From positions 1 through 64,000 of the forward strand of contig CAXXET010000006.1 in the NCBI GenBank assembly GCA_963666115.2: a DNA stretch of 64,000 bases, written 5' to 3'. The notes beneath the pieces were generated by a model. That model searched no databases. It had not been told where the DNA came from and saw only the letters and a program-made list of their open reading frames with translations. Below, one piece after another: positions 4,017-20,829 of this stretch (position 1 is its first letter; every line of letters starts with the position of its first letter). This stretch comes from Dehalococcoidia bacterium (GTDB lineage Bacteria > Chloroflexota > Dehalococcoidia > UBA6926). The translations under genes and the position numbers were made by a program.

Positions 4017-4362
4017 CCGTCCGTCATCCCCGCCCCCCCGTCCGTCATTCCCGCCCCCCGTCCGTCATTCCCGCGAAAGCGGGAATCTGGCACACATCAC
4101 GCAACCCACTCCGTAACGCCCCCCCTTTTTCCCGCGAAAGTGGGAATCCACCCCCCTCCGTCATTCCGGCGAAAGCCGGAATCCATCGGGAATGTCATTC
4201 TGAGCGCAGCGAAGAATCCAAAGACCCAATGGTGCCCCCCCGTTCACCCTGAGCCCGTCGAAGAGCGCCCCCCCCCCGCCCCCCGTCCGTCATTCCCACG
4301 CACGCGGGAATCTGAATCGTACAGTGCTAACCAAGTACCTTGGGCGCAGTCGAAGGGTGAGT
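4017..4362. repeat. Dense mosaic REP-like cluster (BIME/NIME-like)
   Basis: GTCATTCCCGCGAAAGCGGGAATC 4064-4087 with variants at ~4127-4148, 4160-4183 and 4289-4312; GTCATTCTGAGCGCAGCGAAGAATC 4194-4218; GTTCACCCTGAGCCCGTCGAAG 4242-4263; partial tandem copies 4017-4060. Confidence 0.85.
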
Positions 4363-4484
4363 GGCCCTCACCCAATATCTCCCCAGTCTCTCACTACTCC
4401 GTGGGAAGAGGGCGTGCATCATGTGCTCGGGGAAAGTATCCTAAAGGTCACCGACTGGATTCGTGTATGGAGAGGGGTGCCACT

Positions 4485-4898
4485 GTGATTTTTGGTTTCG
4501 GGTATGAGGAGCAACCACGCCGGCGAAAGTCCTTTGGCAAGAAAGAAAGGGACGCCCTGTTCAAATTGCAGAATGGCAGATGCATGTACTGTGGCAAGAA
4601 GGAGCGCGAGGCAACATACTTTGACATCGACCACAAGACACCTATGGCACGAAATGGATCCGACTCGTTCTCCAACTTGCAGCTGCTCTGTCGCCCCTGC
4701 AACACTCGCAAAGGTGCCATGACGGACGGCCAATTCCGCAAGGCGTATGGTCTGACTCCTGCGTCCAAGGCAAAAGGGCCACCGACCAAAGTCGTCCCGC
4801 AGAGTAAGTTTGAGAAGATATCCAAAGAAATCGCAGCCAAGAAAACCCAGAAGCGGAAGCGTGCCCCACAACGCGAACCGAGCATTTTTGACTGGTAG
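4485..4898 (+). CDS. HNH endonuclease
   Basis: CMYC...DIDHKTPMARNGSDSFSNLQLLCRPCNTRKG; GTG start after GGAGAGGGG (alternative ATG at 4467). Confidence 0.85.
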   Translation: MIFGFGYEEQPRRRKSFGKKERDALFKLQNGRCMYCGKKEREATYFDIDHKTPMARNGSDSFSNLQLLCRPCNTRKGAMTDGQFRKAYGLTPASKAKGPPTKVVPQSKFEKISKEIAAKKTQKRKRAPQREPSIFDW

Positions 4899-4921
4899 GC
4901 AGGCGCTGGCATAAAGAACCA

Positions 4922-5098
4922 ATGTCAGACCTGATCACACACCTAAAGCCATTCAACCGTAAAGAGCGGTATTGGCTCCTACACGAAGCGCTACGTGACG
5001 ATACATTTAGACTCGGCGGCGAGTTCCGTGAGAAACTCGGCAAGCTGCTTTGCATGCAGATTCCTGGGGACGCGTACGTGGCAATGCTCAACCATTAG
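4922..5098 (+). pseudogene. Short ORF, probably a 3'-truncated hypothetical gene (MSDLITHLKPFNRKERYWLL...DAYVAM)
   Basis: 58-aa ORF directly after the HNH gene; protein-like N-terminus that ends abruptly. Confidence 0.4.
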
Positions 5099-18275: not shown

Positions 18276-18315
18276 AGTCTTGCTTTGATACTACCGCTTC
18301 CAACCATGTCCCACC

Positions 18316-18909
18316 CTAATAATGATCAACATACCGATCCCCCGCCCGCAACCGCGTACCCCGCCGCCTATCATAAACATACCGCTCAGGATCATCCGGC
18401 CCGGACGCCAAAAGCATCAAAACCACCGCAGGCATCGACGACGTCACCTCCATCGTATGAATATCCATCTCAGGAGGCAGAATCGCCGCAATGTCCCCCG
18501 CCTTCAACCGGCGCCGCGTCGTCCGCTTGATCACAGACCCGTCCTCCGACCTGTCCGGGTCGGGAGTATAAGACACCTCCCGCGCCGCCCCCTGGTACAT
18601 CCCCGCCAAACCCCACCGCGCCCCGTGGTCGTGTATGGGAGTCTTATGCCCGGGCGGAATCACCGAAACCAGCAGGCTGAGCGAGTTGTCCGCCGACCGA
18701 AAAATGATCCACCGGCTGACCTCTGTGGGCGGCGTCTCCCGGTACTCATCCGGCAAAAAATTCTCCATCAGCAAGTGACGGAACGGGTCGATCGTCCGGC
18801 GAATCAGCGTCACCGGGTCCGCCACGCTCACCGCCACGCCTCCCAGTTGACCGAGGAACGTCCCAAGCGCGGGATGATCGACACGCAGGTCCGAAGTCAC
18901 AACGCGCAC
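18316..18909 (-). CDS. Cysteine dioxygenase-like cupin (allele a, downstream of intact dnaK)
   Basis: HDH and DIH cupin motifs; starts 12 bp after the dnaK stop. Confidence 0.75.
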   Translation of the reverse strand: MRVVTSDLRVDHPALGTFLGQLGGVAVSVADPVTLIRRTIDPFRHLLMENFLPDEYRETPPTEVSRWIIFRSADNSLSLLVSVIPPGHKTPIHDHGARWGLAGMYQGAAREVSYTPDPDRSEDGSVIKRTTRRRLKAGDIAAILPPEMDIHTMEVTSSMPAVVLMLLASGPDDPERYVYDRRRGTRLRAGDRYVDHY

Positions 18910-18921
18910 CGATCCTGACGA

Positions 18922-20829
18922 CTACACCTCGCGGAACTCACCCTCAACCGTCTCCGGATCATCGGCGGATGCGCCCTCCCCATCTTTTTCCCGCGAACGC
19001 GGGAACCCATCCCCATCCGGCCCCTGCTGCGAGTACATCGACTGCCCGATCTCCTGTACCAGCCTGTTCAACTCCTCTGTCAGTGTACCCAGCTGCTCCG
19101 CCGGCGCGTTCTGCTCCAACGCCCGCCGCACCTCCGCAACCTTCGCCTGCACCCGCTCCCGCACGTCGTCCGTGATGCGCTCCTTGTGCTCCTCCAGCAG
19201 CCGCTCGGCAGCATACGCCGCCGCGTCCGCATTGTTGCGGATCTCCACCTCCGTGCGACGCTGAGCGTCCTCTGCCGCATGCGCCTCCGCATCCTTCGTC
19301 ATCCGCTCGATCTCCTCGCTCTCGAGCCCGCTCCGAGCCTGGATCACGATCTTCTGCTCGCGGTTCGTCGCCTGGTCCTTCGCGTTCACGTTCAAAATCC
19401 CGTTCGCGTCGATATCGAACGTCACCTCGATCTGCGGCATCCCCCGAGGCGCCGGCGGAATCCCGTCCAGCATGAACCGCCCAAGCGACTTGTCATCGCT
19501 CGCCATCGACCGTTCCCCTTGAAGCACGTGAATCTCCACGCTCGTCTGCCCGTCCGCCGCCGTCGAGAACGTCTGGCTCTTGGACGTGGGGATCGTCGTG
19601 TTGCGTGGGATGATCGGCGTCGCCACCCCGCCAAGCGTCTCAATGCCGAGCGAGAGCGGCGTCACGTCCAAAAGCAGCAGATCCTGCACGTCGCCCGTCA
19701 GCACCCCCGCCTGGATCGCCGCCCCGACCGCCACCGCCTCGTCAGGGTTCACCGACCGGTTCGGCTCCCGCTGGAATATCTGCGTCACCTTTTCCTGGAT
19801 CGCCGGCATCCGTGTCTGCCCGCCCACCAGGATCACCTCGTGAACCTGCCCCGCGGACAGCCCCGCGTCCTCCAACGCCTGCCGGCACGGCCCCGCCGTC
19901 CGCTCGACAAGCGCCGCCGTCAGCGACTCAAGCTGCGCCCGCGTCAGCGTCATGGCCAGGTGCTTCGGCCCGGACGCGTCCGCCGTGATGAACGGCAGGC
20001 TCAACTCCGTCTGCGTCACCGTCGACAGCTCCAGCTTGCCCCGTTCCGCTGCCTCCCGCAGACGCTGCATCGCGCTCCGGTCAGACCGCAGGTCGATCCC
20101 CTCCTGCTTGCGAAACTCATCGATCATCCAATCGACGACAGCATTGTCGAAATCGTCCCCCCCAAGGTGCGTGTCTCCCGCCGTCGAGCGCACGTGGAAC
20201 GTCCCCTCCCCAATCTCCAGGATCGAGATGTCGAACGTCCCGCCCCCCAGGTCGAACACCGCGATGATCTCCTCCTCCTTGTTGTCCAGCCCATACGCCA
20301 GCGATGACGCCGTCGGCTCGTTGATGATCCGCAGCACGTTCAGCCCCGCAATCGTCCCCGCGTCCTTCGTCGCCTGCCGCTGGCTGTCGTTGAAATACGC
20401 CGGCACCGTGATCACCGCGTCCGCCACCGGCTGCCCCAGGTACGCCTCCGCGTCCGCCTTCAGCTTCTGAAGGATCATCGCGGAAATCTCCTGCGGGCTG
20501 TACTGGCTCTCTCCCATCGTCACCCGCACGTCCCCGTTCGGCGCAGACCCAACGGGGTAGGGCGCCAGCTTCGCGTCCTCCTGCACGTCCGCCTCATCAT
20601 GCTTCCGCCCGATGAACCGCTTGACGCTGAAGATCGTCTGGTCCGGATTCGTCACCGCCTGCCGCTTGGCGACGAGTCCCGTCAGCCGCTCCCCGTTCTT
20701 GTTCAGCGCGACCACCGACGGCGTCAGCCGGTTGCCCTCCGGCGTCGGGATCACCGTCCCCTCGCCGCCCTCCATGACCGCGACAACGCTGTTTGTCGTT
20801 CCGAGGTCGATTCCGATTGCCAGTGCCAT
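18922..20829 (-). CDS. dnaK: Chaperone DnaK
   Basis: [34 protein letters not shown]; start MALAIG at 20829. Confidence 0.98.

Follow-up and report, generated by a model that had tools for sequence, protein, structure and literature searches.

The window analysed here, the 64-kb stretch that opens contig C6 of a Dehalococcoidia genome (G000; 2.07 Mb, 9 contigs, 63% GC), carries next to the chaperone gene dnaK a tandem array of four units. In these units, predicted restriction-modification (RM) or toxin-antitoxin genes are separated by truncated 3' pieces of dnaK and by copies of the adjoining gene cdo, which encodes a cupin/cysteine-dioxygenase-like protein. The pieces are imported alleles, and not copies made in place. 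To judge from its sequence, the array is probably a real chromosomal structure, generated when insertion with long target duplication took place three or more times in succession at a single hotspot, which would be the short gap between cdo and a convergent MFS transporter gene just downstream of dnaK. G000 is the only genome of the genus in which such units are stacked.

Array coordinates refer to the minus strand unless a strand is stated. The term anchor denotes a dnaK 3' piece plus cdo, and units a to d are named outward from the intact dnaK. The latter (18922..20829; Pfam HSP70, E 4e-255) aligns over 635 of 635 residues, at 82-93%, to the proteins of 14 relatives, and the template from which the anchors are repeated is its 3' 0.5 kb. 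cdo_a (18316..18909) starts 12 nt past the dnaK stop; its Pfam CDO_I match (E 1e-4) is below cut-off. Cargo a includes a single-chain type IIG/ISP-like RM enzyme of 1112 aa (14937..18275), a 165-aa open reading frame (ORF) with an Rx4H (RNILAH) motif (14424..14921) and, at its distal end, a cluster of repetitive extragenic palindromic (REP) sequences (14236..14410, no strand assigned). Unit b begins at junction J1 (14230|14229, equivalent to dnaK_a position 19320) with 'dnaK_b, a 399-bp in-frame 3' piece (13831..14229), followed by an intact cdo_b of 197 aa (13219..13812) and by a 978-aa methyltransferase/type IIG-like gene on the plus strand (10286..13222), convergent with cdo_b and overlapping its stop codon. 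Unit c begins at J2 (10227|10226, dnaK_a position 19446) with the 508-bp in-frame piece 'dnaK_c (9719..10226). Only the last ~17 nt of its cdo are left, the rest being deleted, and cargo c comprises a FitA-like antitoxin and a PIN toxin (9030..9688; antitoxin 9688-9428, toxin 9431-9030), a 415-aa protein (7715..8962), one segment of which resembles signal peptidase I (S26), and, on the plus strand (7381..7617), the final ~73 codons of a gene from a family of ~350-aa membrane proteins, cut at J3 (7399|7398, dnaK_a position 19091). In unit d a 739-bp insertion (6634..7372), with a 223-aa HNH ORF at 7328-6657, splits 'dnaK_d into its first 26 bp (7373..7398) and the remaining ~150 bp (6482..6633), which hold the second copy of an 8-bp duplication. 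An intact cdo_d (5876..6469) precedes a further FitA-like antitoxin and PIN toxin (5200..5858; antitoxin 5858-5598, toxin 5601-5200), a 58-aa ORF with no Pfam family (4922-5098, plus strand), a gene for a 143-aa HNH endonuclease (4467..4898, plus strand; Pfam HNH, E 9e-15) and a REP cluster (4054..4349, no strand assigned). The MFS transporter gene (2599..3990, plus strand; Pfam MFS_1, E 6e-37) forms the conserved distal flank, and hrcA (22259-21462) and grpE (21458-20871), both identified by Pfam, lie on the other side of the array. The direct repeats of the target measure 1028, 405-527 and ~170 bp, and the stretches between successive anchors ~4.1, 3.0 and 2.3 kb, all below 20 kb.

Most of this order had been read by the first-pass annotation, made from the letters alone. 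Its description of unit b, a 399-bp dnaK piece, a cdo-like gene and an IIG-like gene in opposite orientation, is accurate. In unit a the succession of dnaK, cdo, ISP-like RM gene and REP cluster stands, and the HEPN gene placed between the last two is only possibly one, the RNILAH motif being the sole basis of the name. In unit c the 508-bp piece, the deleted cdo, the FitA/PIN pair and the truncated membrane gene were correctly seen; the S26 label corresponds to a match below cut-off. In unit d, cdo, FitA/PIN, HNH, REP and MFS are in place. The insertion splitting 'dnaK_d had gone unmentioned, the HNH gene lies on the plus strand, and the supposed remnant is the 58-aa ORF without family.

The origin of the anchors is written in their differences. 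In self-BLAST, b matches a at 91.7% over 1028 nt, d matches b at 94.1% over 769 nt and a at 93.8% over 763 nt, and c matches a at 89.0% over 527 nt; kilobase repeats with E = 0 exclude an origin by chance. Overall, copies are 84-94% identical, every one in frame, with synonymous divergence (dS) ranging from 0.06 to 0.35. The a, b and d copies of cdo are all intact and constrained (dS 0.22-0.30; nonsynonymous to synonymous ratio, dN/dS, 0.057-0.077; for cdo_b against cdo_a, 0.30 and 0.077). The dnaK pieces cannot encode a working chaperone, and remain free of stops and frameshifts, with dS reaching 0.35. Their dN/dS is 0.19-0.36, the amino-acid changes falling mostly within the variable C-terminal tail. 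Differing codons were assigned to the intact-gene or the fragment branch by using as outgroup the dnaK of 14 other species of the genus. Nonsynonymous and synonymous changes (N:S) on the fragment branch are 5N:6S in b, 2N:9S in c and 1N:1S in d; the pooled 8N:16S departs from the neutral expectation of 77% N (P = 6e-6), as do pieces c (P = 6e-5) and b (P = 0.023) taken singly. Twelve codons which could not be polarised were set aside (b 2N:1S, c 2N:6S, d 1N:0S). The prevalence of synonymous changes indicates that the differences were acquired while the pieces were part of selected genes.

The phylogeny of the anchors points in the same direction. A FastTree analysis of the four anchors and 14 relatives yielded the topology (c,(a,(b,d))), with support of 1.0 for the anchor clade, and contradicts the topology (d,(c,(b,a))) predicted by serial duplication in place. 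Anchors are 62-84% identical at the nucleotide level to the 14 other species, and since the four form a single clade, the donors must have been close kin. Piece c retains the ancestral DnaK tail, as found in 14 of 14 relatives. The derived tail common to a, b and d exceeds it by 12 nt and is made from a REP-like hairpin. The cdo_d copy is a mosaic, in which a-like blocks alternate with b-like ones. Taken together, the signature of selection, the intact frames and a tree at odds with the physical order show that the anchors were working genes in separate lineages while they diverged, and came together later. Spare copies have also decayed, as witnessed by the HNH element within 'dnaK_d and the cdo deletion in unit c, and such damage is tolerable only in redundant copies. 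The first-pass view of the anchors as diverged mosaics rather than fresh duplicates is supported by dS values, reading frames, purifying selection and mosaic blocks.

Elsewhere in the genus the locus is simple. The relatives compared are other species of the genus, and not strains. In 20 of the 21 genomes cdo is single and adjoins dnaK, and the dnaK 3' piece is single in the same 20; the remaining genome (G012, 86% complete) has no cdo. The 20 loci extracted share the order hrcA-grpE-dnaK-cdo, beyond which lie MFS paralogues, convergent and one to three in number; MFS follows the single cdo in 19 of them, and the contig of the last (G020) stops 130 bp after cdo. The cdo-to-first-MFS gap is 125 bp or less in 16 of the 19 relatives, and reaches ~0.9-1.0 kb in three (G005, G006 and G013), where it is filled with low-GC cargo, different in each case. 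The filled gaps qualify the cdo-MFS interval as a small hotspot in the genus, and bear out the first-pass notion of a variable slot. G006 and G013 carry membrane-like ORFs in the slot. In G005 (locus L032, 3550-4292) the slot hosts an AF2212-like ORF (Pfam E 2e-9) and a 151-aa ORF with a weak aspartyl-protease match, which may form a toxin-antitoxin-like pair. The MFS gene of G000 is orthologous to the second or third MFS of relatives, whose proximal, 63-66%-type MFS is missing in G000. The ~14 kb separating cdo from a 72%-identity MFS in G014 was considered as a filled slot and discarded, because a divergent MFS also adjoins cdo in this genome.

The search was extended to 401 Dehalococcoidia genomes, screened with the 169-aa DnaK piece. 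Within the genus only G000 has extra pieces, with three matches, the short d piece being under threshold; genomes of other families with 2-3 matches occur among the matches listed, and one genome flagged as unpublished (G260, one match) is counted in the tally but supports none of the conclusions. Short DnaK C-terminal ORFs were also noticed in the protein collection. Two of them, P0004 (168 aa, on a 24.6-kb contig) and P0053 (115 aa, on a 12.2-kb contig), come from public contigs of relatives and are 83% and 75% identical to piece c, respectively, and may be either partial genes at contig ends or similar dnaK remnants. A third, P0003, was dismissed as a remnant: it looks like a frameshifted dnaK, since its N-terminus reads as out-of-frame dnaK.

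How could such an array arise? Separate lineages of a species complex would fill the slot with different foreign cargo, such as an IIG/ISP-like RM gene, a second IIG-like gene, or FitA-PIN pairs. DNA carrying one such allele, along with its own dnaK-3'/cdo flank, would then enter a cell in which the slot is already filled. It could be fixed by one homologous exchange in dnaK/cdo and one illegitimate join, linking the far end of the incoming cargo to the middle of dnaK, either through Campbell integration of a circularised fragment, or through a fragment bridging two sister chromosomes. As a result dnaK would stay intact, the newcomer would lie beside it, and the older unit would be displaced outward behind a truncated dnaK piece. 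The observed geometry, [dnaK-cdo][cargo new]|['dnaK-cdo][cargo old], is that expected from either route; the data fit both alike, and both place the newcomer beside the intact dnaK. By sequence similarity, cargo in all four units is of the addictive kind, RM or toxin-antitoxin. If so, clean replacement of a resident allele would be penalised, and recombinants keeping both alleles would survive.

A number of observations weigh against this explanation. The array is known from assembled sequence alone, as one instance in one genome of the metagenome-assembled (MAG) type, and begins 4 kb from the start of contig C6. No other array of this kind was found in G000 among 12 local direct-repeat pairs (at least 120 nt, at least 84% identity), six of which come from the array itself and six are ordinary. 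The latter correspond to a tandem operon pair with thiolase-like and DUF35-like genes, a run of paralogues on contig C4, and proline-rich or REP stretches; the search for further partial core-gene duplications flanking cargo, suggested at first pass, thus returned nothing beyond this array. No single-unit donor allele came to light, since neither genomes nor contigs of the species itself turned up: scanning metagenome contigs with cdo gave 71 loci, with a best identity of 32%, and genome contigs gave other species only, at 88% or less. In the tree, c and d overlap for just 153 nt, and the mosaic blocks mean that recombination among copies or alleles blurs the branching. Anchor differences of 6-16% are as large as those which, in this region, separate certain named species of the genus, and would make the donors rather distant for RecA exchange. 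The resemblance between the REP cluster closing cargo a and the MFS-side one is not diagnostic. Finally, a single-chain IIG enzyme loses R and M together, and its loss may not kill the host.

The setting in which the array was found leaves room for an artefact. An assembler might have joined head to tail co-existing strain haplotypes of a single-unit locus, and a MAG-type genome in 9 contigs, an array lying so close to a contig start, and relatives which are all MAGs are circumstances in which this could occur. Moreover, each anchor resembles the functional allele of a different lineage, as strain haplotypes would, and the fragmented G020 contig hints at strain variation of the slot. We regard this as unlikely. 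Three false joins would be needed, all in direct order, each connecting unique cargo to a different interior point of dnaK, and no shared repeat occurs at the joins which could mislead the overlap. The dnaK pieces are cut to 185-508 bp, with no upstream continuation, one of them is interrupted by a transposon-like element, and cdo is missing from unit c. Elsewhere in the assembly, for which completeness is rated 100% and contamination 0.3%, no spare contig represents another haplotype of the locus. Furthermore, a 1.26-kb insertion sequence (IS), with copies 99.9% identical, is resolved within large contigs, which implies that long reads were used, able to span anchors of 1 kb or less.

Tandem duplication by unequal exchange is common, and one unit could have been duplicated in place by illegitimate recombination, its copies diverging at the site while cargo was swapped. 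The three intact cdo copies could then be maintained paralogues, and the FitA-PIN pairs of units c and d, 89.1% identical over 695 nt in self-BLAST (dS 0.20-0.35, dN/dS 0.26-0.30), are indeed related. Dead dnaK pieces should drift neutrally in this scenario, in contrast with the 8N:16S ratio and the absence of stops and frameshifts. The tree contradicts the expected nesting, and the ancestral tail resides in c, flanked by a, b and d, which carry the derived one. Three separate junction points would be required all the same. An origin in place seems rather unlikely.

Junctions and mobility genes bear on the question whether a dedicated enzyme has been at work. J1, J2 and J3 fall at three different dnaK positions, each joined to unrelated DNA with only scattered matching bases, and the junction alignment revealed no shared core sequence. 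On the dnaK side each junction is in unique sequence; REP sequences are on the cargo side at J1 only. Five Pfam family profiles were searched across the whole of G000. Tyrosine recombinases (PF00589) gave two matches, both Xer-sized, at 393 kb of contig C4 and 475 kb of C6; DDE_Tnp_1 three, at 17 kb of C1 and at 174 and 406 kb of C6; OrfB (PF01385) one, at 201 kb of C4. Serine recombinases (PF00239) and rve gave none in the genome. None of the five families matched within the window, and no recombinase was found by Pfam among the array ORFs. The first-pass annotation had placed the three dnaK starts at 14229, 10226 and 7398, with weak microhomology at most, and had seen no recombinase; on both counts the data agree. 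With no tyrosine recombinase in the window, and with cargo ends which, the generic REP clusters of a and d excepted, are mutually unrelated, the array does not look like an integron in the strict sense. Nothing similar to the locus was found in a scan of viral contigs, and a megablast of plasmids with 4000-19500 returned only short dnaK and chance matches. RecA, ComEC and two DprA genes are present in G000. This is weak evidence for DNA uptake, because control genomes of non-competent organisms have them too.

It is very unlikely that the array was formed by site-specific accretion of islands without integrase, mobilised in trans (whether by Xer, by HNH nucleases, or by an integrase that is distant or has been lost) into an attachment site in dnaK, each island restoring dnaK with its own 3' end, as elements targeting tRNA genes or icd do: the geometry resembles that of tandem islands split by partial copies of the target gene, two HNH genes lie within the array, and J3 is just 18 bp upstream of the 8-bp target site of the HNH element, yet junctions occupy three dnaK positions with no common core, the repeats span 0.2-1.0 kb and include a whole second gene, far beyond the length of attachment sites, in a genome rated complete, tyrosine recombinases number just two, both Xer-sized, and serine recombinases are absent, and neither viral contigs nor plasmids yielded a relative of the locus.

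If the array is a genuine structure, assembled by successive insertions with long target duplication, homologous together with illegitimate recombination can, unaided, add to the defence cargo instead of exchanging it, and RM and toxin-antitoxin genes may bias the outcome toward accumulation. The locus is instructive for how defence islands grow in the absence of mobile-element machinery, and keeps intermediate steps of the process, as four alternative alleles of one slot are found in a row, and the core-gene pieces that came along with them have been retained. A bolder and rather doubtful extension of the same idea is that, once a first illegitimate join exists, a unit made of cargo and anchor might behave as a cassette addressed by homology, and the whole as a defence array of integron-like kind that needs no integrase. 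Neighbouring anchors would recombine through RecA and release a unit as a circle; after transfer, the anchor would direct its integration behind the dnaK-cdo pair of any relative, and addictive cargo would make the recipient retain the old unit. Identical tracts of 43-109 bp between anchors and the presence of recA make exchange between anchors, and the loss or looping-out of units, possible in principle. Were this true, a polarised array would grow beside an essential, highly conserved gene, expanding or collapsing through RecA, and units would be shed and exchanged within the species complex.

Cargo is distinct in composition from its surroundings, having 54-58% GC and no GC skew, against ~60-70% GC and strong skew in anchors and flanks. 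Homologues of both R and M components are found in units a and b only (2 of 4, b by weaker matches), while c and d carry FitA-PIN pairs. The RM protein of unit a matches Type_ISP_C (E 4e-43) and N6_Mtase in Pfam, and REase_MTase_IIG in PADLOC (E 1e-86). The neighbouring 165-aa ORF has no match in Pfam, NCBIfam or PADLOC, and finds only hypothetical proteins in the protein atlas. The unit b gene weakly matches Eco57I and MTS in Pfam, and MTase_II (E 3e-9) and mad2 in PADLOC; a homologue 77% identical at the amino-acid level is found in G005, ~14 kb from cdo. The FitA and PIN genes of unit c are recognised by Pfam as FitA-like_RHH (E 4e-5) and PIN (E 9e-12). The 415-aa protein of the same unit hits signal peptidase I (NCBIfam TIGR02228) at E 1.5e-9, below cut-off, and no Pfam family. 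Full-length paralogues or homologues (340-372 aa) of the membrane gene truncated at J3 reside elsewhere in G000, and in G006 and G007; the match in G008 is open for just 110 aa, and none of these genes lies near dnaK. The hypothesis that this truncated gene is what is left of the missing proximal MFS was rejected, as tblastn gave E > 0.1 and the gene belongs to another, ~350-aa family.

The 739-bp insertion within 'dnaK_d has the structure of a transposable element, being delimited by 15-bp terminal inverted repeats with one mismatch, and flanked by an 8-bp target duplication (AGTTGAAC). Its sole gene encodes the 223-aa HNH nuclease (Pfam E 1e-10), which is unusual for an element of this type. 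It is single copy in G000 and bounds no unit; its insertion point is 26 bp downstream of J3. A related element (70% identity), which has identical ends and whose ORF is frameshifted, was identified at an unrelated intergenic site in G002 (locus L117, contig C16, ~1475-2194). No transposase associated with the ends of this element was found.

REP sequences of the family found in the array, with the core TTCCCGCG..GCGGGAA, are very abundant in G000, as the 194-nt cluster has 199 BLAST matches. Orthology of the cargo-a cluster to the MFS-side cluster was entertained and rejected on account of these genome-wide matches, the best of which is at position 149824 of contig C8. REP-like hairpins are also found in frame in the stretch encoding the DnaK C-terminal tail, at 18978-19019, 13887-13928 and 6538-6579 of the window (alleles a, b and d, respectively). 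It seems that a dispersed repeat has been taken into the dnaK coding sequence in these alleles.

Other features of the genome deserve mention. The contig opens with a gene (98-2434, plus strand of the window) for a 778-aa eukaryote-like protein that combines leucine-rich repeats with fibronectin type III domains, and whose internal repeats may be the reason why the contig breaks there. Tandem paralogous ORFs of 125 aa, 76-84% identical at the DNA level, are found at 23285-23662 and 23709-24086, on the plus strand. The region 145000-175000 of contig C8 contains a paralogue of the unit b IIG-like gene (156080-158120, 71-80% nucleotide identity), and several multi-copy segments common to contigs C3, C4 and C6; the region is probably another island of the defence or variable kind.

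For RM genes, insertion with long target duplication was reportedly described in 2000 by Nobusato and coworkers. In the text of Furuta, Abe and Kobayashi (2010; PMC2853133), RM genes lie between target duplications and lack mobility genes. Target repeats range from >30 bp to ~420 bp, inserts are <20 kb, left and right repeats are 93-100% identical, and most cases come from competent species; a cycle is hypothesised in which elements invade, amplify through the repeats, and are released. The resemblance is close. As in the cases portrayed there, defence genes lie between long, variable and non-identical target repeats, with no integrase or transposase, and a related genome has a single-copy, 'empty' target; the same features (inserts <20 kb, repeats >30 bp, no bounding mobile element, single-copy target in relatives) are found in the array. 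The initial statement that this is not a described system was hence too strong, as the single step has been published. Compared with what the same text reports, the array differs in being iterated at least three times at one site, from three start points, and in having repeats of up to 1028 bp, which include a whole gene and are 84-94% identical. The array repeats are demonstrably imported alleles rather than copies made by the insertion, and two of the four units carry toxin-antitoxin genes instead of RM genes.

The minimal mobile elements known from Neisseria (Saunders and Snyder 2002; Snyder 2007) are summarised in PMC3787668. They similarly occupy a slot between conserved flanks, with varying content and no mobility genes, just as slot content differs among G000, G005, G006 and G013. 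Their exchange is attributed there to homologous recombination in the flanks, and such elements replace each other, whereas alleles of the array accumulate in tandem, one flank being partly duplicated each time. The mosaic of a-like and b-like blocks in cdo_d and the identical tracts of 43-109 bp shared by anchors would be compatible with exchange of that type. Tycheposons, according to a preprint (bioRxiv 10.1101/2020.12.28.424599), share with the array the location of the newcomer beside an intact target, the outward position of older units, and the partial target copies in between. They depend on site-specific recombinases and target tRNA genes through a fixed attachment site of ~40 nt; the array has no recombinase, no fixed site, and kilobase-scale repeats in a protein-coding gene pair.

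Precedents for the recombination events are also available. In Johnston et al. 2013 (PMC3784515), lethal replacement leads to merodiploids which retain resident and incoming alleles together as a tandem duplication, formed by unequal exchange between sister chromosomes with donor DNA as a bridge. Those merodiploids span 100-900 kb and are bordered by pre-existing IS repeats, unlike the array, which has units of 3-5 kb, unique illegitimate joins, and no pre-existing dispersed repeats on the dnaK side. Homology-facilitated illegitimate recombination, as summarised in PMC3240628, lets a linear fragment enter by one homologous and one illegitimate end. A homologous anchor and an illegitimate join bring in foreign DNA there as would be the case in the array; the process as described there leaves no duplicated anchor. 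Resistance of chromosomal RM genes to allelic replacement is reported in Mruk and Kobayashi 2014, citing Handa 2001.

In the literature surveyed, supplementary files being outside its scope, neither different alleles stacked at one site behind nested core-gene pieces, nor evidence that such repeats are imported alleles, were encountered, and papers on dnaK fragments or pseudogenes and on defence-island duplication hold nothing on such arrays; nested cases may be present in the supplementary figures of Furuta et al. The array would carry insertion with long target duplication, whose focus has been H. pylori, over to a marine Dehalococcoidia lineage that is uncultured, to toxin-antitoxin genes as cargo, and to an iterated form. 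The elementary step is already known.

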